In this document: one piece after another, positions 2,865 through 11,779 of the stretch | How positions within the stretch are numbered: position 1 is the stretch's first letter | Layout of the letters: every line of letters starts with the position of its first letter | Source: a virus | Taxonomy: Duplodnaviria > Heunggongvirae > Uroviricota > Caudoviricetes | Strand: one strand, 5' to 3' | Length of the DNA stretch: 64,000 bases | IMG/VR virus record: IMGVR_UViG_3300041411_000102 | Location: 1 to 64,000 of that record | The notes under the pieces: generated by a model | The model's database searches: none | What the model was told of the DNA's origin: nothing | The model's input: the letters and a program-made list of their open reading frames with translations, nothing else | Position numbers and translations under genes: made by a program

Positions 2865-3979
2865 TACTAGATAGTCGGGAGTATCTAGACCCCGATTGCG
2901 AAGGTGACCAGTCCTGTGGATTAAACCAACTACTAATTGACGGTGCTGGTGGGGATATTGAAATACTTCCCGGTGAATATCTAATCGCAGACACGGGTGT
3001 TATTCACAACAGGACAGCACTCCATATGAGGTGTGCTACGATAAAAGCTCACCAAGATTTGCCCCCAAATAAACCCTTAATACAAAACTCCACTGTATCG
3101 GGCGCGGCCAACACCTACTACGACACCGATATCCAGATACACGGAGGGAAGTTTGATGGAGGGATGCTTCCTGATAGAGCTAATTCACTTCTAGGGTTTC
3201 TAAAGTGTAAGGACCTACTACTTGATAGGGTAGAGATGTGCAACAGCACCTATATGGGGCTAGCAATAGGGGGTAGTCTTAGACCAGTAGTGACAAGGTG
3301 TGAAGTTCACCACACAGGCAAACCCAATGTAACTTCTGAGGGTGGGGCTGCGATATGGCTTGGCACTACTGGTGACGGTTCTAGATGTGTCAGGGCAGAC
3401 ATAGTAGATAACTATATTCATGAGACGCAGTGGTCAGGTATTTATGCCAGTGGGAGAATTATTAACGTACACGGCAACCAGATTTGGGATACCAGAGAAA
3501 GTGCGTTCTTCGGCGTTGTGGATGGGCTAAGCTATCTACACAACCACACACGCAGCACTAGCCGTAAAAATATATCAGCATCTGGTCTTGAGCTTGGTGG
3601 TGGGAGTGCGATCATTGCCGACAGTACTTTTGAATACATTGGGAACTGTGCAGTGTCTTTAACCGATGCAAAAAACGTCGATGTTCATGATTTGTTTTGC
3701 ACTGAGATTGGCACGGAGCGGAGTTATTTTCCGCAGGCTTCGGTGATAGAAATCAACAGCCAGCACCCAACATACAGCCAATGTAACGGTAACAATATCC
3801 ATGACATCCGGCTACAAAACTCAACTGCACTGTTTGCAGTGTTAGCTGTTGTTGGACCCGGACAGCCTGTTTCCGATCTGAGATATGGACCATTCAATAT
3901 CGCCGGTACATCCTTTACATCTGGCTCCCAGATTTATTTCCAAGCTGGCCTAAAAGGTTCAAATGTTGTAGGGTACTAA
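2861..3979 (+). CDS. Tailspike or depolymerase-like protein with a pectate-lyase-type beta-helix
   Basis: N-terminal 'GDIEILPGEYLI' resembles the pectate_lyase_3/tailspike motif. Periodic Asn/Gly-rich rungs follow. Confidence 0.5.
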   Translation: MILDSREYLDPDCEGDQSCGLNQLLIDGAGGDIEILPGEYLIADTGVIHNRTALHMRCATIKAHQDLPPNKPLIQNSTVSGAANTYYDTDIQIHGGKFDGGMLPDRANSLLGFLKCKDLLLDRVEMCNSTYMGLAIGGSLRPVVTRCEVHHTGKPNVTSEGGAAIWLGTTGDGSRCVRADIVDNYIHETQWSGIYASGRIINVHGNQIWDTRESAFFGVVDGLSYLHNHTRSTSRKNISASGLELGGGSAIIADSTFEYIGNCAVSLTDAKNVDVHDLFCTEIGTERSYFPQASVIEINSQHPTYSQCNGNNIHDIRLQNSTALFAVLAVVGPGQPVSDLRYGPFNIAGTSFTSGSQIYFQAGLKGSNVVGY

Positions 3980-3997
3980 TTAGCACAGGGTATTAAT

Positions 3998-4528
3998 ATG
4001 TCCACCAACTACAATCTGTATAAAAAGCTCCTTGGAGTTGGTCTTGGCTCTGCCTTGGCAATTTCTGGAGCATTCATAGTTGCACCATTTGAAGGTAAGG
4101 AGAACAAAACTTATATTGATCCTGTTGGTATCGTGACGGTGTGTTATGGTAATACTGGTAAGGAAGCTATTCTTGGAAAATCTTACACAGATGATCAGTG
4201 TCTAGATCAGATGGCTACAGACTTAAAAGAGCATGACAAGCAATTGATGTCTGCTGTTAAGGTTCCATTTAAGTCTGATTACCAACATGCTGCAATGCTC
4301 TCTTTTGTCTACAACGCAGGGATTGGTAATTTCTCGTCTAGTACAATGCTTAAGAAACTTAATGCAAAGGATTATGACGGAGCTTGCCAAGAGCTAACCA
4401 AATGGGTTTATGCGAAAAAGAAAATGCTGAAGGGTTTGGTTATTAGGCGTTCATTGGAATATAAATATTGCATGGGTGAAGTTCCATTAGAGGTTATCAA
4501 TGAAGTTAAAAAAGCCAACCCTAATTGA
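3998..4528 (+). CDS. SAR endolysin (T4-lysozyme/GH24-like muramidase)
   Basis: Catalytic triad spacing E-x8-D-x5-T in 'PFEGKENKTYIDPVGIVTVCYG'. N-terminal Gly/Ala-rich weak TM 'LLGVGLGSALAISGAFIVA' fits a signal-arrest-release domain. Confidence 0.8.
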   Translation: MSTNYNLYKKLLGVGLGSALAISGAFIVAPFEGKENKTYIDPVGIVTVCYGNTGKEAILGKSYTDDQCLDQMATDLKEHDKQLMSAVKVPFKSDYQHAAMLSFVYNAGIGNFSSSTMLKKLNAKDYDGACQELTKWVYAKKKMLKGLVIRRSLEYKYCMGEVPLEVINEVKKANPN

Positions 4529-4742
4529 AGACTGGAAGAAACAGCTTCATAGCTACAGTGCTTTATCCTTATTCGCGAATATCTTGATCGCCCTAGCATA
4601 CGGCCTGTCCCTAGCATTTGGAATGGGGCTTGTCTATATGAGCCCTTTCTATATTGTTCTGGTGATGGGCGGTGTAGCTAGTCTTGGTGCAGCAGGTCGC
4701 TTTATCAAGCAACAGAAAGAGGATGAAGAGAATGTTCAATAG
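4500..4742 (+). CDS. Holin, possibly a pinholin partner of the SAR endolysin
   Basis: 80 aa with two TM helices and a charged C-terminus. GAGG RBS. Start overlaps the end of the endolysin gene. Confidence 0.6.
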   Translation: MKLKKPTLIEDWKKQLHSYSALSLFANILIALAYGLSLAFGMGLVYMSPFYIVLVMGGVASLGAAGRFIKQQKEDEENVQ

Positions 4743-5160
4743 CTGGATGTTCTATCTCATTCTCGGTTTGTCTGCAAGTACTCTCTCTTTAGGCTGGCTT
4801 TCTCTGTCTCTACACGATGATAAGCTCATAGCTGAGCAAGCACTAGTCCAAGCCATCAACGTCAATTCTGATATGCAAAAGTCCCTTAACTTACGGGATT
4901 TAAGCTGTCAGATTGACAGCGTTAGTGTGGTTGAAGTGGAAGCAGAGAAAAAGGATCTTCAAACTAAAATTGAGGGTGTGTCTGAGAATATTGAGAAGCT
5001 ACGTAAACCAGTAGTAGTCAAACAAGAGAACATTAAGAATGAAAATCTTAAACCTAATGTATTGCCTGATGATGGGTTGCTTTCTGATAACATTGTCAGC
5101 CTGCTCAAACAAGGTTACTGCACCACATACCCCACAGACAGTGAATGTCTTCCCAAGTGA
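4732..5160 (+). CDS. i-spanin (Rz-like)
   Basis: N-terminal TM 'MFYLILGLSASTLSLGWLSLSL' followed by a periplasmic coiled coil. The tracked ORF starts at 4684; I prefer the ATG at 4732, or 4723, which sits after a GAGG RBS. Confidence 0.6.
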   Translation: MFNSWMFYLILGLSASTLSLGWLSLSLHDDKLIAEQALVQAINVNSDMQKSLNLRDLSCQIDSVSVVEVEAEKKDLQTKIEGVSENIEKLRKPVVVKQENIKNENLKPNVLPDDGLLSDNIVSLLKQGYCTTYPTDSECLPK

Positions 5161-5329
5161 TGCACTCTTGGTTAATCCTTGCCGTGCAAAACCTGCTGGC
5201 GAAAGTCTGATTGATCTAGCTCTTGCACAGAATCGGAATGTCGGATGTATTGGTTTATGGGAAAAGCAGATGGATGCTATCCGTAAGAACAAGAAGTCTC
5301 AGATGGAGCTGTACAAGAATGCCAAATGA
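5039..5329 (+). CDS. o-spanin (Rz1-like outer-membrane lipoprotein) overlapping the i-spanin in another frame
   Basis: Lipobox 'LITLSAC' with Pro-rich sequence and conserved Cys downstream. Begins in the +1 frame inside the i-spanin and runs past its stop, the overlapped spanin layout. Confidence 0.6.
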   Translation: MKILNLMYCLMMGCFLITLSACSNKVTAPHTPQTVNVFPSDALLVNPCRAKPAGESLIDLALAQNRNVGCIGLWEKQMDAIRKNKKSQMELYKNAK

Positions 5330-5636
5330 CTCAGCTAACATTAGAATCAACAACCTATGGGAAAGATTGTGTTTGGGTATGCTTTCTTTGATTGTTAGCG
5401 CTCTATTCCTAACCTACCAAGGTCAAAGGACAGACTTCAAGAATCTTGAAGAGAAAGTTCTTACCATGCAGACAGGCAAAGTAAACCGTGAAGATTTAAG
5501 AGAGGTAGAGAACAGGCTAAACAATAAGATTGATGCCAGTATCTCAGACCTTATTTCCAGAAGTGCTGCTGATAAAGCAGAGATTATCCGTACAATTGAA
5601 CTCTACTTTGTAGGTGTTAAGAACAAACAACGGTAG
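5319..5636 (+). CDS. Type-II membrane coiled-coil protein, i-spanin-like
   Basis: The start overlaps the o-spanin stop. One TM 'LCLGMLSLIVSALFLTY' followed by a coiled coil. Confidence 0.45.
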   Translation: MPNDSANIRINNLWERLCLGMLSLIVSALFLTYQGQRTDFKNLEEKVLTMQTGKVNREDLREVENRLNNKIDASISDLISRSAADKAEIIRTIELYFVGVKNKQR

Positions 5637-5645
5637 AGGCATCCA

Positions 5646-6005
5646 ATGATATGGACAATACTAGAAAGGACCATCCACCTACTCACTTTTGTGTTATTGG
5701 TGGCGATGTTAGCTATCATAATGTCTAATAGCAAAAGCTCAGAAAACGTAGGTAACTTTGATTTGAAGTTGGATGTAGTAAAGCAAGAATCTCTGAATGC
5801 TATAAAGAACAATGTTGAATACTTTGAAAAACGTATTAACAATGTATCAGAGAAGCAAGACAGCTATCAAGTTGGTACTGACCAACGTGTATATGTCCTT
5901 GAGATGCAGATGAAACAGTTGCAAGCTGATAAGAAACAGACACAACGGATTATAAATAATAACCAGTCTAATGCTGTTATCTATCAGAATGCTAAAGAAC
6001 AATAA
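5646..6005 (+). CDS. Type-II membrane coiled-coil protein, i-spanin-like
   Basis: GAGG RBS. TM 'LLTFVLLVAMLAIIMS' followed by a coiled coil. Confidence 0.5.
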   Translation: MIWTILERTIHLLTFVLLVAMLAIIMSNSKSSENVGNFDLKLDVVKQESLNAIKNNVEYFEKRINNVSEKQDSYQVGTDQRVYVLEMQMKQLQADKKQTQRIINNNQSNAVIYQNAKEQ

Positions 6006-6063
6006 TAAGAACTGCCATGCAGACATTTGATTAGTGACGCCATTCACTATATCTCAGATACTT

Positions 6064-6106
6064 AAAAACCCCGCTCTCCGTCAATGGGAGAGCGGGGTTT
6101 TCTTTT
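6064..6106. terminator. Bidirectional rho-independent terminator between the convergent late (+) and early (-) blocks
   Basis: aaaaa-CCCCGCTCTCC-gtcaatg-GGAGAGCGGGG-ttttctttt, a GC-rich 11 bp stem. Confidence 0.85.
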
Positions 6107-6115
6107 GTCTAAGAT

Positions 6116-6562
6116 TTAGTCAGAGCTGTAAGACGAGCTACTGTCTGAACTCCCCGAATCATAGCTGCTGGATGATGAGCTTGAATCACTACCGTAACGA
6201 GAGCTAGACGAATCATCATAGCTTGAGTAAGAACTAGAAGAGGATTCATTTGAATAACTCTGCACAGGCTCTGGAACACTCGCAGGTTCACTTCGTTCTA
6301 CATGTTGACTAACACTTGGAGTTGAATCGATCAAAGAATCCAATACCAAGTAAGTTAGAGCCATATCTTGAAAGCTTGTATCAACGTGCTGTGTTGGTGG
6401 TACATAAGTCGGCGTAGTTACAGGAGCTGTACGAGGGTAAAATTTAGCTTGAATGCTCTTCCCTGTACGTTGCTTCTGGGGAAGCTGATAAACAGGTTCT
6501 ACACGATCAACTACGTCCATTTGCTTTTCTTTCTTGAACCAAGATTTAATTTTATTCCACAT
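6116..6562 (-). CDS. Ser/Tyr/Asp-rich low-complexity protein, co-operonic with the SPFH gene
   Basis: C-terminal ~50 aa read 'SSSSSYSSYDDSSSSRYGSDSSSSSSSYDSGSSDSSSSYSSD'. The start abuts the SPFH stop. Confidence 0.5.
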   Translation of the reverse strand: MWNKIKSWFKKEKQMDVVDRVEPVYQLPQKQRTGKSIQAKFYPRTAPVTTPTYVPPTQHVDTSFQDMALTYLVLDSLIDSTPSVSQHVERSEPASVPEPVQSYSNESSSSSYSSYDDSSSSRYGSDSSSSSSSYDSGSSDSSSSYSSD

Positions 6563-6563
6563 G

Positions 6564-7424
6564 TTATTTACCTACTGAAAGAAAGGGAGTTGCATTGCCC
6601 GGAATCACTGTAGTTGGAAGTACACCGTTCCAACGTTCAGCACGAGTCAGTTCAATCAAGTTACTATTGCTAGACAAGGCATCAGAACGTTTCTTGATGG
6701 CACCGGCCTCAGCCTCACCTTTCAGTGAAATACTAAGAGCTTCTGCTTTAGCTTGAGCAAGTTGGCTATCGGCACGAGCTTGAGCTTGGGTTACTGCAAT
6801 TTGAGCACTCACCATTTCCTTATCAAGATTCTGCTTCTGAGTTTGAACTTCTACTTCAGCCTTCATACGAGCTTCTACAGACTTTTCATAGGCATCAGAG
6901 AAATCAATATTTTCAAGTTGAACACTATCAATCACAACAGGGCCTGTGATACTCCCTTTTACAGCATTAGAGACATCGGCGACGAACTTGGCACGCTCTT
7001 GTACTGCGCTGATTGCCGTATACTTACCAAAGATGTTTTCTACTTGGTTAGGTACTTGACGATTAATCAAACGTTCAACCATTCGGTCAATATCGCCAAA
7101 GTTAGTATAGACATTCAATACTTCAGAAGCTGGCACATGAAACGTCACACTTGCACGGATATCGGCAGGTTGTTGGTCACGGCTGTAAGCTTGGAGCTTG
7201 TCATATTTCACAGTGAACGTTTGCACACTGATCTTAGTCACAGATTCAATGAACGGAATCTTGAAGCCCAGCCCCGGTTCAGCCAAACCTGTCACCTTGC
7301 CATTACGCAATTGAACACCACGTTCACCTTCTCCGATTGTGTAAAAACTACCAAGTGTGACACTCAACAACAGAATAGCGATGAAACCACCGACTACAGA
7401 CATTACGATACTTTTAGGTTGCAT
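6564..7424 (-). CDS. SPFH/band-7 (stomatin/prohibitin/HflC-like) membrane protein
   Basis: N-terminal TM followed by an SPFH core ('VQLRNGKVTGLAEPGLGFKIPFIE...TFTVKYD') and a C-terminal coiled coil rich in A, E, Q and K. Confidence 0.75.
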   Translation of the reverse strand: MQPKSIVMSVVGGFIAILLLSVTLGSFYTIGEGERGVQLRNGKVTGLAEPGLGFKIPFIESVTKISVQTFTVKYDKLQAYSRDQQPADIRASVTFHVPASEVLNVYTNFGDIDRMVERLINRQVPNQVENIFGKYTAISAVQERAKFVADVSNAVKGSITGPVVIDSVQLENIDFSDAYEKSVEARMKAEVEVQTQKQNLDKEMVSAQIAVTQAQARADSQLAQAKAEALSISLKGEAEAGAIKKRSDALSSNSNLIELTRAERWNGVLPTTVIPGNATPFLSVGK

Positions 7425-7547
7425 TTATTGTTTCTCCTGAAATAGTTTATTAGTCATTTTCCAAACATCCTGATACGTTGCCACTATACCACGTCCAACC
7501 AGATATGCAAATACGATTGCTCCTGTTATTACAAAGACTCCTGTCAT
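7425..7547 (-). CDS. 40 aa single-TM protein, translationally coupled upstream of the SPFH gene
   Basis: Translated by hand as MTGVFVITGAIVFAYLVGRG.... ATGA overlap with the preceding ORF. Confidence 0.4.
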   Translation of the reverse strand: MTGVFVITGAIVFAYLVGRGIVATYQDVWKMTNKLFQEKQ

Positions 7548-7720
7548 CCTTCCACCCCATTGTAAGGTTCATGTTTAGTCGTGTTCATCAAGAAACTACT
7601 ACTTCGTTGATTGACAACCTGTAGTTCGAACTCTTGCTCTTCTTTAGTCATAGGTGACTGCTTACTTTTATACCGACAAACAACGCCGATTGCAACCACT
7701 AATACTGCCCAAATAATCAT
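7544..7720 (-). CDS. 58 aa single-TM protein
   Basis: Translated by hand as MIIWAVLVVAIGVVC.... TAATG overlap with the 7720..7911 ORF. Confidence 0.4.
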   Translation of the reverse strand: MIIWAVLVVAIGVVCRYKSKQSPMTKEEQEFELQVVNQRSSSFLMNTTKHEPYNGVEG

Positions 7721-7911
7721 TATTCTGTCCTCTTCACAACAGATTCAAACATAGTCTTATCACTCTTAGATTCTGTAACCTTATGCTTTACAGCTTCCAC
7801 TTGCAACACTTGTTTCTGTTTATAAACCTGTGAGTCAAGATACACATATCCACCTACTAGCACAACAACCAGAAGGAGTACGCCTGCAATTAGATCTTCA
7901 TAACCTTTCAT
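7720..7911 (-). CDS. 63 aa single-TM protein
   Basis: Tracked ORF. TM 'LIAGVLLLVVVLVGGYVYL'. Confidence 0.45.
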   Translation of the reverse strand: MKGYEDLIAGVLLLVVVLVGGYVYLDSQVYKQKQVLQVEAVKHKVTESKSDKTMFESVVKRTE

Positions 7912-7921
7912 GTTTTAATCC

Positions 7922-8266
7922 TCAAGGGTAACGAATGTATTTAACTTTCTTAGATTTCTCCACAGTCTTTTGACGAGCTGCTTCTTGTTTATCATTCTCT
8001 ACCAGCTCAAGCAATCTGTCAATAATTTTCTTTGCTCGTTCTAGTGAGCCGCGTGGCCCGAATTCATTAGCAAACGCTTCTCTGCTCATGCTATCAGTGT
8101 AGCCCATCCAATCAAGCTTCAAACGTGCAGGATACCAAGACAAAGAATCCTGCCAGACATGTACTTCGGCTGTGTATTCTGTGATGTCAACACCATCGTA
8201 TGTCTTTGTAGTTTGTTTAATTCGTGTTTTCATATTACCACCATAATGATTTATATTTCTGCCCAA
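7922..8266 (-). CDS. Hypothetical protein
   Basis: Tracked ORF in a co-directional block. Confidence 0.5.
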   Translation of the reverse strand: MGRNINHYGGNMKTRIKQTTKTYDGVDITEYTAEVHVWQDSLSWYPARLKLDWMGYTDSMSREAFANEFGPRGSLERAKKIIDRLLELVENDKQEAARQKTVEKSKKVKYIRYP

Positions 8267-8699
8267 AAAGACTCAAACCTTCTTGAACTCTCTTCTCATG
8301 TACATCCATATCAGCATAATAACGAGCTTTCTCTTCCTGATTATCACATTCAATTGTGTAAGGAACTGAGTAACCTTCTTTGGCAATGCCGCCCTCAACA
8401 GGAACCATCTCAAGACTAAAGCTATAGTCTCTCATATCGGGCTCTTTATTCTCAAAAGCATACATCATTTTCTTGATGTCGTCTAGCCAATTTTGTACTT
8501 CTTGATCTGTGACATCAATATCAGGATTAGCACAATATTCACTCGGGACACCTAGACACTTTCCTTCTTTGTTACGTTTCTCCAATACTTCGTGGAAACG
8601 TAAGAGTCCTGCGTAGATGATTGGGGACAGGGTGTGGTCAAGACTGTATGTGTCTCTGTAGCCAAATTGCCACTTACCCTTTCGTTTGATTACTGACAT
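8235..8699 (-). CDS. Hypothetical protein
   Basis: ATG at 8699 gives a TAATG overlap with the upstream gene. The longer tracked start at 8735 overlaps that gene. Confidence 0.5.
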   Translation of the reverse strand: MSVIKRKGKWQFGYRDTYSLDHTLSPIIYAGLLRFHEVLEKRNKEGKCLGVPSEYCANPDIDVTDQEVQNWLDDIKKMMYAFENKEPDMRDYSFSLEMVPVEGGIAKEGYSVPYTIECDNQEEKARYYADMDVHEKRVQEGLSLFGQKYKSLWW

Positions 8700-9070
8700 T
8701 AAATATAGCACTCCGAATAAAGTGTTCCCGGACAATGATCTTCACGGATAATCTGACCAGCAGATTTAGCAATTGGATAAGCTTCTTTGCGAGTTAGGAA
8801 GTTACCATATTGATCTGTGAAACCTTGAATCATCTTATCAAATCCACACCACTCTTGTAAGACCTCTTCCATCATCATAATCTGCATTTCCATGATAGGG
8901 CAGCTATGACGTGTCCCTGTTACAATATATCCATTGTAATTATAGGCTGCTTGGGCAATACGACGTTGGACACCATAATATTCCCATCGGGTACGACCGT
9001 CCTCCATGATGTTACCACGAAGACGTTCTTGGTATTGTTCTACTACAGATTTGATTCGTTCGATTGACAT
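8699..9070 (-). CDS. Hypothetical protein next to the RNR gene
   Basis: The tracked start at 9142 is a TTG. The ATG at 9070 is preceded by a GAGGAT RBS. Confidence 0.45.
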   Translation of the reverse strand: MSIERIKSVVEQYQERLRGNIMEDGRTRWEYYGVQRRIAQAAYNYNGYIVTGTRHSCPIMEMQIMMMEEVLQEWCGFDKMIQGFTDQYGNFLTRKEAYPIAKSAGQIIREDHCPGTLYSECYI

Positions 9071-9080
9071 TAAATTATCC

Positions 9081-9287
9081 TCAAAAAGATGTCTTGCAGT
9101 AAACACCAAAACGAGAATTATCCTGAGCCAAACCAGCACCAATCATGAGTGTACAAGGAAGACATTCATCTGGAGTAAGAGCCCACATCTCTTCAGCGTA
9201 CAAACCAATACTTCTTTCACTCCAACCTTCCCGACGTTGAATGTCAGCAACTACAAGCAATTGGTATTCGAATTCTTGACGTGTCAT
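9081..9287 (-). CDS. Hypothetical small protein with a CxxC motif
   Basis: Tracked ORF containing 'ECLPC'. Confidence 0.4.
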   Translation of the reverse strand: MTRQEFEYQLLVVADIQRREGWSERSIGLYAEEMWALTPDECLPCTLMIGAGLAQDNSRFGVYCKTSF

Positions 9288-9302
9288 TTATAAAGCTCCA
9301 AT

Positions 9303-9341
9303 TAAAAGAAAACCCTACAGAACATCTCTGCTCTTGTAGGG
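9303..9341 (-). terminator. Rho-independent terminator on the minus strand
   Basis: Minus-strand stem CCCTACA-loop-TGTAGGG followed by TTTTCTTTT. Confidence 0.6.
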
Positions 9342-9368
9342 TAAAGTGTATCACATCAGATTATCGTG

Positions 9369-9560
9369 TCAAGCTTTGTTAAGGCAGTTTTTACACATAC
9401 AAGCGTCGTTCAGATCCAACCCTTTACTCTGCACACTGAAGCACCAGCAGACATTCTTTCCTAGCATAATGTCGCATCTAACCGGCATTTCACATCGAGG
9501 ACAAGAGTGAGATACGTTCGATTGTGTACCGACCTTTTCCATTAGTTCAATGTAGTCCAT
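9369..9560 (-). CDS. Small Cys-rich protein, zinc-ribbon-like
   Basis: Nine Cys in 63 aa, including 'CPRC' and 'CKNC'. Confidence 0.45.
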   Translation of the reverse strand: MDYIELMEKVGTQSNVSHSCPRCEMPVRCDIMLGKNVCWCFSVQSKGLDLNDACMCKNCLNKA

Positions 9561-11779
9561 TAAAAGCTAATCTCACATACGCCACCTGCACAGGCTTGAC
9601 TTCCCATTGTATCAACTTCAGTGTAGCTTTGTTGAGAAAGATCTTTGGAGAAGTCCACATCAACGAATTCATTATTGATTCCAACCCATTTGTGCAGATT
9701 GTGACAATCCTTGAGCATAAAGGTAAGTTTCATAACATCCTCATCAAAGTTCTTTTCTGCAAACTTCTTAACTCGACGTACCCAATCTCGTTTCAGCAAG
9801 TCCCGTGCATCATCTGGATCAAGTTTCAATCCAAAACCAAGTGCTGTATCACAAGCCATCCAGAGGTTATTACCAAATGCTTGCAATGCACCAACAACCA
9901 ACCCAGATGCAAACATTGAGCTATCCCCATACATGTCCACAATCTGTTGTGCTGTGAACACTTCAGTGAATGGAGCTTGAGCATATGCACGATCACCCAT
10001 AGAACTGAGAAGAGAGATACCAGCAAACCATTTACGGTTGTTGTAGATGTACTCCTCAACTTCATCCCAATCATCAACTGTAATAGTGTTACTTACGTTG
10101 TGACGAAGATCAGGGTCAACACAAAGTTCGTAGTTAGTACCATGTTCAATCCAATATTGCTGAGCAGTTTTTACATAGTCAAGCTGCTTCACACCCATCA
10201 AATCAGACTTGTAAATACTACCCTCTTTACTTTCAACAGGGAAGCTGACTACAACATCTGTCCCGTTACTACTCCACACAGAAGGCTCAACCATCTTAGG
10301 GTTGGTTTTAGTGATGATACGAGTAACTTCATCACCTACGTTCATCTGTACATTACGGAGATACTTAGGGCTGTGTTCCCCGTGAATACCAGAAGCTGTA
10401 CCAAGAATAACAGAAGCATTACCACTTGGTTTAACTGCTGTGCAGCGAGCAGATTGGTTAATGCCCAACATCTTAGCGACAATTTTATTAATTGCTTTTA
10501 CTTCATTAGCAGCAGCAATCATATTCTCATGGTTAAACATGACATCGGGGTTGTTCATCCAACCAGTCAGACTTACACCGAGCAAAGCCTCTTTCTCTGT
10601 AATTCGTCGTGTTGCATCAGAGAGATATTTAAAGTTTGTATAGCCCGCTTGAAGAGTACCAAGAATTGCACCTGCTTTGGCTACTCGCATCAAAGAAGCT
10701 AGATCAACACACTTACTACCATTTCCTTCGACAAGATTACAGAATTGAAAGCCTGATTCACCATTCTCTGCAACTGGCAACATGCCAATTTCTACGCAAG
10801 GGTTAAAGCAAAACTCTTTGTTCTCTGTGAAGATAAAGCCGGGTTCACCAAAGTCTTTAACAGACTTCATAATGTTAGCCCACTCTTCACGACTCAGTTC
10901 ATCACGTACAAGCATCACAGAGTTATTACTACGACCACGTTGAGGGTTATCAACAAACCAATCACCAGTCTTGGCTTTCAACATCAACTCATCATCTTTA
11001 TCAAACATACAGATGGTTGCAGACCGGCGAACACCACCACTCAAAACAGCATCAGACATGTGCATAACAAAGTCATAGGCTGTGATGGTAGGAACGCTAA
11101 CAGCTTCTGTTTTCCCCTCAACTAGTGCTTCCAGCAACGCTTCACACTTAACCAACGCACTACGCAAACCATCTGGACCGGGAGCCTTAAAACCACCGGA
11201 AATCAAAGCCCCTTTAGGACGAATCTTGTTGAAATCAAAGTGTACTTGGCAACCTTTGTATTCAAGGAAGCTGCCACCATCTACAAAGTAGCTACTGAAC
11301 AGTACACCAAAAGCATCAGCCCAACCTTCAATTGTATCTGGAACTTGGAATACTTTTACTTTCTTCTCATAACGCTTGTGTACTTGTGGAAGTTTTGCAA
11401 TGTGATGGGACTGAACAGAGAAGCCAACACCACAACCACACAGCAGAAGGTACATACACTCTTGAAAGAATGTTGCACGATCACAATGAGATACAGAGCA
11501 GTTATACATACGAGCTTCATGTTTAAACAGTTGCTCACCACCGAACTGCAATGCTCGTTGTGCCCCCAATACAGCTTTGTCTTTGTAAGCTTGTTCTGCA
11601 AAAGCAATATATTCTTCAAGTTCTGGTGTCATTACAGAAGCGTACTTTTGACGGTGCATATTCATTACACGAGAAACAGATTCTTCCCATGTTTCGTATC
11701 CACCTTTAACTTCATCCCAACGAGAATAACCCATGTAGAACTTAGAGGACGACATCATATTTTTGCCAGCGGTATTCAA
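9560..11779 (-). CDS. Ribonucleotide reductase large subunit, about 739 aa, probably the monomeric class II NrdJ type
   Basis: Finger-loop 'NPCVEIGM' and a C-terminal Cys pair. No NrdB seen in the window. The TTG start sits 7 nt after a strong AAGGAG RBS. Confidence 0.7.
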   Translation of the reverse strand: MNTAGKNMMSSSKFYMGYSRWDEVKGGYETWEESVSRVMNMHRQKYASVMTPELEEYIAFAEQAYKDKAVLGAQRALQFGGEQLFKHEARMYNCSVSHCDRATFFQECMYLLLCGCGVGFSVQSHHIAKLPQVHKRYEKKVKVFQVPDTIEGWADAFGVLFSSYFVDGGSFLEYKGCQVHFDFNKIRPKGALISGGFKAPGPDGLRSALVKCEALLEALVEGKTEAVSVPTITAYDFVMHMSDAVLSGGVRRSATICMFDKDDELMLKAKTGDWFVDNPQRGRSNNSVMLVRDELSREEWANIMKSVKDFGEPGFIFTENKEFCFNPCVEIGMLPVAENGESGFQFCNLVEGNGSKCVDLASLMRVAKAGAILGTLQAGYTNFKYLSDATRRITEKEALLGVSLTGWMNNPDVMFNHENMIAAANEVKAINKIVAKMLGINQSARCTAVKPSGNASVILGTASGIHGEHSPKYLRNVQMNVGDEVTRIITKTNPKMVEPSVWSSNGTDVVVSFPVESKEGSIYKSDLMGVKQLDYVKTAQQYWIEHGTNYELCVDPDLRHNVSNTITVDDWDEVEEYIYNNRKWFAGISLLSSMGDRAYAQAPFTEVFTAQQIVDMYGDSSMFASGLVVGALQAFGNNLWMACDTALGFGLKLDPDDARDLLKRDWVRRVKKFAEKNFDEDVMKLTFMLKDCHNLHKWVGINNEFVDVDFSKDLSQQSYTEVDTMGSQACAGGVCEISF

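Follow-up and report, generated by a model that had tools for sequence, protein, structure and literature searches.

What does a phage gain from an SPFH (Band-7) protein that is encoded among very small membrane proteins at the end of an operon? The question is raised by five minus-strand open reading frames (ORFs) in a 64,000-nucleotide (nt) stretch of a virus of the class Caudoviricetes (IMG/VR virus record IMGVR_UViG_3300041411_000102, positions 1 to 64,000), the whole of which is called the window here. Three small ORFs with transmembrane (TM) segments, p63, p58 and p40, run into an SPFH gene, which is followed by p148, an ORF for a serine/tyrosine/aspartate-rich (S/Y/D) protein; the four ORFs are named after their lengths in amino acids (aa). 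An initial annotation of this DNA had seen in them a five-gene membrane module with no described counterpart in phages. We tentatively favour the reading that the 3' end of this operon encodes an inner-membrane SPFH scaffold together with small single-pass partners, in the manner of HflK/C or prohibitin assemblies.

The SPFH gene is the anchor point of the locus. Its 286-aa product matches the Pfam Band_7 profile (PF01145) at 120.2 bits (cut-off 23.6, E 1.3e-34) over profile positions 2-175 of 176, and matches phrog_200 at 7.5e-56. The nearest solved structures in the PDB are those of HflC (4.4e-11), HflK (1.5e-8) and prohibitin-1/2 (1.6e-7), with the HflK and prohibitin alignments extending to residues 240-248 of the phage protein. 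Scores against the equivalog models remain below their cut-offs, both for HflC (TIGR01932, 55.3 vs 134.4 bits) and for HflK (TIGR01933, 30.3 vs 159.4 bits), which marks the protein as a relative of these subunits and not as an ortholog. Judged by these profile matches, it is a true full-length SPFH protein of the HflC/HflK/prohibitin branch, in agreement with the initial annotation. A TM anchor (approximately residues 6-27) precedes the SPFH domain (29-203) and a long coiled-coil helix (~176-264), and the C-terminus carries the motif W-N-G-x-L-P-T-T-x-I-P-G in conserved columns of alignment A1. A single-sequence AlphaFold2 (AF2) model was poor overall, with a predicted local distance difference test score (pLDDT) of 52. 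Its elements follow one another as expected, from TM helix through alpha/beta region to a ~90-residue helix, with pLDDT values of 82-89 in the core of helix 176-264 and low confidence in the remainder. No second SPFH gene was found near the module at the ORF level in 3500-10500, the rest of the window not having been scanned for SPFH domains.

Homologs of this protein are present in 276 phage records, the best being that of GAP32 (54% identity). SPFH genes have been noted in phage genomes since 2006 and have been listed there for twenty years without an assigned role (PMC1524935; PMC8540360), so the supposed lack of phage precedent does not hold. For lytic phages of the PAK_P3/KPP10 type, the role of SPFH has been described as "still not clear" (PMC8540360), and our literature search turned up no work on the function of a phage SPFH protein or of gp19/gp20 of coliphage N4. 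Full-length bacterial homologs come from Cellvibrio (65-70% identity) and Pseudomonas (~60%). The closest of them (L111, L113 and L188, Cellvibrio metagenome-assembled genomes) are chromosomal and monocistronic; the Cellvibrio homologs hint, short of evidence, at the host range of the phage clade.

The evidence that phage SPFH proteins have small partners comes from a survey of 80 IMG/VR loci carrying SPFH relatives of 45-95% identity. Many of these loci contain a single-TM ORF of 33-55 aa that ends a few bases from the SPFH start. A first hidden Markov model (HMM), built from 21 seed ORFs and searched against TM ORFs of all frames including 631 decoy TM ORFs, found 32 further ORFs at 15 bits or above, every one of them on the same strand upstream of SPFH and 0 elsewhere. 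A second HMM, built from 45 non-redundant sequences and run against 11,886 ORFs of at least 20 aa from the window and 102 loci, placed a member upstream of SPFH in 59 of the 80 viral loci and gave no match at E<1e-3 anywhere but upstream of SPFH. Expressed per SPFH cluster, the micro-protein is present in 27/42 clusters at 90% identity and in 11/18 at 70% identity. Among the best 80 bacterial loci a micro-protein was found in one; the other 79 are without it, their SPFH genes being monocistronic among housekeeping genes. A survey restricted to -30 to +60 nt of the chosen SPFH start had returned 27/80, which is an under-count: for many members the distance to the SPFH start is 61-101 nt, and in some of these loci it is taken up by an SPFH ORF extended at its N-terminus, the measured distances depending on the SPFH start codon chosen. 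Overlap between the stop codon of the micro-protein gene and the start codon of the SPFH gene is frequent.

Members of this family are single-pass proteins of 33-65 aa, in which the TM segment begins at about residue 4 and is followed by a basic or N[VI]xFK region. The consensus can be written M-x-x-L-[AS]-x-I-G-x11-G-x-[YW]-W-x-x-x-N-[VI]-x-F-K, then a charged tail, which in some members is extended by RYxYxxDExGNE. G8 and G19 are invariant (IG-x(10)-G, the two glycines being 11 positions apart; written IG-x11-G here). The family has no match in Pfam or PHROG, and its 156 database clusters carry no domain and are named "hypothetical" or inconsistently. Clear members are encoded by cultured phages, among them Agrobacterium phage OLIVR1 (MT234338; L197 1079-1195, E 1.8e-10) and Mesorhizobium phage Cp1R7A-A1 (MT188704; L198 ~1039-1140, E 9.5e-10), and are unannotated in GenBank in both cases; weaker matches are found in Rhizobium phages RHEph10 (gp079) and Pasto (gp010). 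These Agrobacterium, Mesorhizobium and Rhizobium carriers are phages of different families. They were found by fetching SPFH loci and running the family HMM on them, a tblastn search of a 64-aa member against cultured phages having returned nothing, probably on account of low-complexity masking. The GenBank record of OLIVR1 has the SPFH region on the wrong strand, as two 'band 7-like' coding sequences. This dedicated, largely unannotated family and its near-exclusive linkage to phage SPFH genes appear to be new. One clade (L059, L078, L095 and L101, at ~3800-4100) also carries a conserved 75-82 aa protein with an N-terminal TM segment (..NNNKFHAMLLGC..) directly downstream of SPFH, so that the genes for micro-protein, SPFH and small TM protein form a set of three.

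How do the small ORFs of the window relate to this family? Each of p63, p58 and p40 has one strongly hydrophobic N-terminal segment, in keeping with their initial description as single-TM proteins. Of the four ORFs around the SPFH gene none found a profile match: scans of p63, p58 and p40 against Pfam, PHROG, NCBIfam and PADLOC yielded sub-threshold noise only. Selection could be gauged against L005, a relative at a synonymous divergence of 0.8-1.5, for which the ratio of nonsynonymous to synonymous substitution rates (dN/dS) is 0.20 in p63, 0.17 in p58, 0.03 in the SPFH gene (the proteins being 95% identical) and 0.08 in p148. Values in this range (0.03-0.20) place all four under purifying selection, and on this footing four of the five ORFs (p63, p58, SPFH and p148) are real genes. 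The expected conservation of the small ORFs in related phages was thus seen for p63 and p58; p40 has no homolog.

p63 is probably a diverged member of the SPFH-associated micro-protein family. It is the best-scoring non-family ORF of the window in the family HMM (7.8 bits, E=2). Among ORFs below threshold, the large HMM search ranked the L006 ortholog of p63 highest (12.8 bits), followed by p63 itself (7.8), a decoy (7.1) and p40 (6.9). The L006 positional ortholog scores 12.8-14.2 bits in the family searches. An alignment of the p63 clade compared with that of the family (A3) gave an hhalign probability of 61% (E 8e-5) and a score of 26.2 over 33 in-register columns; six unrelated single-TM alignments scored 13.6-17.3, and 0/100 column shuffles reached 26.2. 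On the same strand as SPFH and upstream of it, p63 is the first of the small ORFs, and in L105 and L006 the p63-like gene directly adjoins the SPFH gene. p63-like genes occur in every lineage of the clade, with orthologs in all four. The protein ends in FESVVKRTE. The general form of this motif, F-E-x-x-x-K-x-T-[EQN] at the extreme C-terminus, is found in the p63-like proteins (window 7720-7760) and also in otherwise unrelated 106-aa two-TM proteins of two sibling phages (L191 3183-3503 and L192 3397-3717).

The other two small ORFs have different standings. p58 was tried as a member of the micro-protein family and rejected (hhalign 8%). It is 61-75% identical in L005 and L109, and its homologs in public data form 36 clusters of 56-63 aa with the motifs YKSKQxPMTKEEQ ... 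PYNGVE; by these sequence comparisons p58 is a separate, clade-specific and well-conserved family. In a DNA alignment with three other lineages, p40 fills a clean insertion of 105 nt that follows the stop codon of p58 and precedes the ribosome-binding site of the SPFH gene. Its sole match among 5.8 billion protein clusters is itself, it is absent from every relative, and its open frame taken on its own is within chance expectation. Translational coupling and a TM-like segment make p40 a plausible candidate gene, its coding status being unproven. Against the family it reaches an hhalign score of 20.1 (34% probability), above all decoys, besides the 6.9 bits given by the HMM, and it is possibly a second, weak micro-protein paralog.

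At the far end of the set, p148 was described initially as ending in an S/Y/D tail of about 50 residues, and its last 48 residues do contain 30 S, 6 Y and 6 D. Ahead of the tail are an N-terminal basic amphipathic stretch (MWNKIKSWFKK) and a central FQDxALTYLVLDS. The protein has no Pfam, PHROG, NCBIfam or PADLOC match, and tblastn against phages found nothing. A phmmer search with the non-repetitive part, its first 101 residues, against 1.84 billion representatives returned only three homolog clusters, all with the same architecture (MWxKIxSWFKK, FQDxALTYLVLDS, and an S/Y/D tail ending in SSSYSSD). An AF2 model has a pLDDT of 56.7 and almost no secondary structure. The gene is conserved and under purifying selection in related phages, but occurs in a narrow clade only and has a frameshift in L006, where the copy (4858-5183) has a 51-nt in-frame and a 25-nt frameshifting deletion relative to the intact gene of L105 (4001-4426); the L006 gene is either a natural pseudogene or an assembly error. 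Neither L191 nor L192, two sibling phages, has p148, and its position in L194 is occupied by another protein, of 100 aa and with a TM segment. We regard p148 as a real but narrow clade ORFan, predicted to be disordered and probably dispensable.

A comparison across relatives, which were recovered through p148 and p58 homologs, separates the stable parts of the locus from the variable ones. Throughout the wider clade, a p63-like gene and an SPFH gene occupy the slot that precedes the convergent lysis unit, and of seven lineages examined only one is without a p58-like gene. The SPFH proteins of the siblings L191 (3519-4370), L192 (3740-4585) and L194 (3406-4284) are lipobox-anchored and only ~22% identical to that of the window, yet these phages retain p63-like and p58-like genes despite the different SPFH type. 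From these sequences the difference looks like non-orthologous replacement within one fold. The siblings also have extra proteins of 69 aa and of 106 aa (two TM segments) inserted at the position taken by p40 in the window. In coliphage N4 (NC_008720 8057-9092; L201 3058-4093), gp19, a 68-aa protein with two TM segments, overlaps the start of gp20 by 8 nt, and gp20, an SPFH protein with a lipobox anchor, shares the C-terminal motif WNGxLPTTxIPG with the window protein. These two genes are located among early/middle genes, including those for the early/middle RNA polymerase (RNAP), and adjoin gp18, which is annotated as superinfection exclusion by similarity only. Elsewhere, the SPFH/micro-protein pair adjoins thymidylate synthase and dUTPase, or the SPFH gene adjoins primase and dUTPase. 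Across phages, these neighbours indicate that the consistent setting is DNA metabolism and not lysis.

Charge distributions give a first idea of how the proteins might be arranged in the membrane. All 45 family members carry more lysine and arginine on the C-terminal side of the TM segment, about 2.9 in the 15 residues after it against 0.13 in the N-terminal flank of 2-3 residues, from which an N-out/C-in topology is predicted for the micro-proteins. The SPFH proteins have a basic N-terminal flank and a net acidic C-terminal flank, which predicts N-in, with the SPFH and coiled-coil parts in the periplasm. The lipobox anchor in the sibling phages and in N4 points to a periplasmic SPFH protein independently of these charges.

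We can now propose a tentative model for the locus. The operon would be an early/middle unit for replication and nucleotide metabolism, with the SPFH protein as a phage-made scaffold in the inner membrane. A multimeric, periplasm-facing SPFH cage would fence off a patch of inner membrane during infection. The micro-protein helices, running antiparallel, could pack against the ring of SPFH anchors through the conserved small-residue face formed by IG-x11-G, while their basic tails would reach into the cytoplasm. They would then act as transmembrane adaptors, either recruiting a client or being the client themselves; candidate clients might be FtsH-type quality control of the host or phage membrane proteins. 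p58 may be a second, clade-specific partner and p40 a recent insertion, possibly a paralog, and p148 a disordered cytoplasmic accessory that can be lost.

The layout of the genes has to be considered before this model is weighed (Table 1). The sizes, positions and overlaps of the five minus-strand ORFs given in the initial annotation were confirmed from the sequence, and the same five genes were called independently by the JGI and Logan gene callers on identical contigs. The p63/p58 junction is a 1-nt TAATG overlap and the p58/p40 junction a 4-nt ATGA overlap; the p40 stop abuts the SPFH start codon (TAA followed directly by ATG), and the gap between SPFH and p148 is 1 nt. Shine-Dalgarno sequences of the GAGGA/AGGAGA type can be read 5' of p63, p58 and the SPFH gene.

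Table 1. Coordinates of the five-gene set and of the features at its convergent boundary (window positions).
Feature	Position	Strand	Description
p63 ORF	7911-7720	-	63 aa, single-pass membrane protein
p58 ORF	7720-7544	-	58 aa, N-terminal TM
p40 ORF	7547-7425	-	40 aa, hydrophobic
SPFH/Band-7 gene	7424-6564	-	286 aa
p148 ORF (S/Y/D protein)	6562-6116	-	148 aa, no TM
Bidirectional intrinsic terminator	6065-6101	.	15-bp stem, 9 GC pairs, A-run upstream, T-run downstream
Two TM + coiled-coil ORFs	5223-5636, 5646-6005	+	N-terminal TM each; phrog_4172 and phrog_3899, families of unknown function

The tight packing implied by the word "module" is real, but the set does not stand as a unit of its own. 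Only 10 nt separate the end of p114 from the start of p63, and the five genes form the tail of a long minus-strand array that leads through p114, p166 and a gene resembling class II ribonucleotide reductase (RNR) up to DNA polymerase. A promoter scan found 18 sites against 15.4 +/- 3.6 expected, which is chance level, and no signal before p63. Downstream, the hairpin with its A-run on one side and T-run on the other is a bidirectional terminator, as first described; it is common to the minus-strand operon and to a convergent plus-strand late/lysis unit. An Rfam scan of 5500-8500 gave only sub-threshold, terminator-driven matches and none in the p40 insertion. The lysis unit comprises a phage lysozyme (Pfam, 1.5e-37), a DUF7940 holin-like protein and an Rz-like i-spanin with an embedded lipoprotein o-spanin; the spanin match, phrog_4349, is on the plus strand, opposite the five-gene set. 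The set had been placed right after the lysis cassette. The two are convergent neighbours, but two ORFs for TM and coiled-coil proteins stand, with the terminator, between the spanin genes and the set; these ORFs are kept in L005, L006, L105 and L109 and may encode additional lysis or membrane factors. The five-gene set closes a replication and nucleotide-metabolism operon and is outside the lysis cassette, to which it comes close because two convergent transcription units meet at this boundary.

Further up the array, a 739-aa protein (9560-11779, minus strand) has a weak match to the insertion domain of B12-dependent (class II) RNR, and in close relatives the equivalent place is taken by alpha and beta genes of class I RNR, which suggests an RNR class swap within the clade. 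The phage itself is distantly related to Pseudomonas KIL/PAK_P1-like myoviruses (DNA polymerase 57% identity). The GC content of the window is 40.5%, and a megablast search of the region against 50,697 phage records gave no match.

Several points weigh against the scaffold-and-partner model. The link between p63 and the family is weak by sequence (7.8 bits, E=2; hhalign 61%) and is mostly carried by the TM helix, such evidence being inherently weak for short TM proteins, and the predicted topologies place the shared FExxxKxT[EQN] motif on opposite sides of the membrane. The topologies themselves are rule-of-thumb predictions from charge counts. The family is missing from 21 of the 80 viral loci that have an SPFH gene, including those of the jumbo phages GAP32, BF and fHe-Yen9 and those of Skarpretter and Kc166B, and the viral loci are mutually related, so that the counts overstate independence. 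The content of the slot between p58 and SPFH varies from nothing to p40, a 69-aa or a 106-aa gene, which is as compatible with the casual insertion of small, unrelated genes as with partnership. Finally, PADLOC gave 0 families for all five proteins, and nothing was found that indicates a specific client or phenotype.

Some of these points are also what one would expect if there were no functional module, with the SPFH protein working alone and the small ORFs and the S/Y/D gene being unrelated filler at the operon end. SPFH does stand alone in the chromosomal homologs and in several phages, p40 is an insertion seen only once, the L006 copy of p148 has a frameshift, and the slot content is variable. 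We nonetheless consider this unlikely, since members of the micro-protein family, in divergent phages, are found only beside SPFH genes and frequently overlap them at the stop and start codons, and since phages in which an SPFH gene of 22% identity has taken over still carry their p63-like and p58-like genes in position.

The set might instead serve superinfection exclusion or counter-defence, by blocking DNA entry of other phages or by neutralising a membrane-acting abortive-infection effector of the host. Exclusion systems typically involve small early membrane proteins. The gp19-gp20 pair of N4 adjoins the putative exclusion gene gp18, and the fast turnover of small genes between p58 and SPFH is reminiscent of arms-race loci. 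These arguments are countered by the similarity-only basis of the gp18 annotation, by the absence of any PADLOC-DB match for the five proteins and of homology to known exclusion proteins in Pfam and PHROG, and by the very slow evolution of the SPFH gene (dN/dS 0.03), unlike that of typical arms-race genes. A role of this kind seems rather improbable to us.

A bolder form of the scaffold model deserves the same degree of scepticism. Micro-protein and SPFH could together form a phage-specific two-component cage, in which the adaptor tail would be cytoplasmic and a periplasmic dome would capture or shield an inner-membrane target, the present clade having added p58, p40 and p148. Such a cage might wall off the FtsH of the host or some other machine for quality control or defence, or might protect phage membrane proteins. 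If true, this would be a new class of device for viral takeover of host membranes, in use across unrelated phage families.

Poorer still are the prospects of a lysis-timing module, in which the small TM proteins and SPFH would regulate the neighbouring lysis cassette in an antiholin-like or holin-raft fashion. The module is near the endolysin/holin/spanin cassette, with the two TM and coiled-coil ORFs between, this adjacency is kept in all clade relatives examined, and all the players are membrane proteins. Yet the five genes are on the opposite strand, convergent across a strong terminator and co-linear with RNR and DNA polymerase; in other phages the pair adjoins thymidylate synthase/dUTPase, primase/dUTPase or the N4 RNAP genes, not lysis genes; and 0/5 proteins have a lysis PHROG match at E<=0.01. 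Membership of the lysis cassette was rejected on the grounds of strand, terminator and co-linearity with DNA-metabolism genes, and a part in lysis timing is correspondingly hard to credit.

The weakest proposal, that the small TM proteins are minimal NfeD equivalents promoting SPFH oligomerisation, draws on the frequent sharing of operons between bacterial SPFH genes and nfeD, a proposed oligomerisation promoter (PMC13086221), and on the fact that the small proteins are membrane-anchored and upstream of SPFH, as nfeD usually is, but it is very improbable and was rejected, given that p63, p58 and p40 have no NfeD (PF01957) Pfam match at E<=0.1, that their tails of 20-40 residues are too short for the NfeD OB-fold, and that NfeD partners are SPFH proteins of the stomatin or flotillin type, whereas the window protein is in the HflC/HflK/prohibitin branch. 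What survives of the initial suggestion of small TM proteins as SPFH partners is the partnership itself, supported by the SPFH-linked micro-protein family, and not its stripped-down NfeD form.

The implications extend beyond this phage. Most sampled phage SPFH genes come with a dedicated, often unannotated micro-protein that bacterial copies are without, which makes the pair a defined two-gene unit. It can be approached in tractable systems, namely coliphage N4 (gp19-gp20), Agrobacterium phage OLIVR1 and Rhizobium phage RHEph10. Should the SPFH protein prove to be a cage with a specific client, the unit would be a compact model for client choice by SPFH proteins, relevant to prohibitins and HflK/C. 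More generally, deposited phage genomes miss ORFs of 33-40 codons or have them on the wrong strand.

Finally, a comparison with known systems helps to define what is shared and what is particular to the phage locus. The nearest solved sequence relatives of the window SPFH protein are the subunits of the E. coli HflK/HflC cage around FtsH (PDB 7vhp, 7wi3 and 9cz1), with which it shares an N-terminal single TM anchor, the SPFH domain, a long coiled-coil helix and a periplasm-facing domain, the last being predicted for the window protein. HflK and HflC are a gene pair, whereas the phage module has one SPFH gene, with a putative micro-protein partner of 33-65 aa in place of a second SPFH subunit. 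The phage locus also resembles the NfeD-SPFH operons (YbbJ-QmcA, NfeD-FloA and PH1510-PH1511), in which a small or medium-sized membrane-protein gene directly precedes SPFH and NfeD has been proposed to act in assembly or oligomerisation (PMC13086221). They differ in that the phage micro-proteins have no NfeD domain or OB-fold, the SPFH subfamily is another one, and the micro-protein family is phage-restricted in this sample. The bacterial monocistronic prohibitin-like SPFH proteins (Cellvibrio, Pseudomonas; Yersinia y2843 type) are 60-70% identical to the window protein over its full length, but are encoded alone among housekeeping genes, often have a cytoplasmic N-terminal extension of 10-30 aa, and are without a micro-protein. 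In B. subtilis, small membrane proteins are reported to recruit an SPFH protein in the YdjG/YdjH-YdjI (SamGH-SamI) system with PspA (PMC8581546; bioRxiv 10.64898/2026.02.06.704340); that protein resides in the cytosol and is linked to the phage-shock response, and no sequence relation to the phage proteins was found here. The N4 gp19-gp20 pair resembles the window locus in being an early/middle pair with a small membrane protein overlapping the SPFH start and in the common WNGxLPTTxIPG motif, and differs from it in that gp20 is lipobox-anchored and 27% identical, and gp19 has two TM segments and is outside the micro-protein family. Overall, the module of the window is a variant of an "SPFH plus small membrane partner" theme, to which its clade has added p58, p40 and p148.

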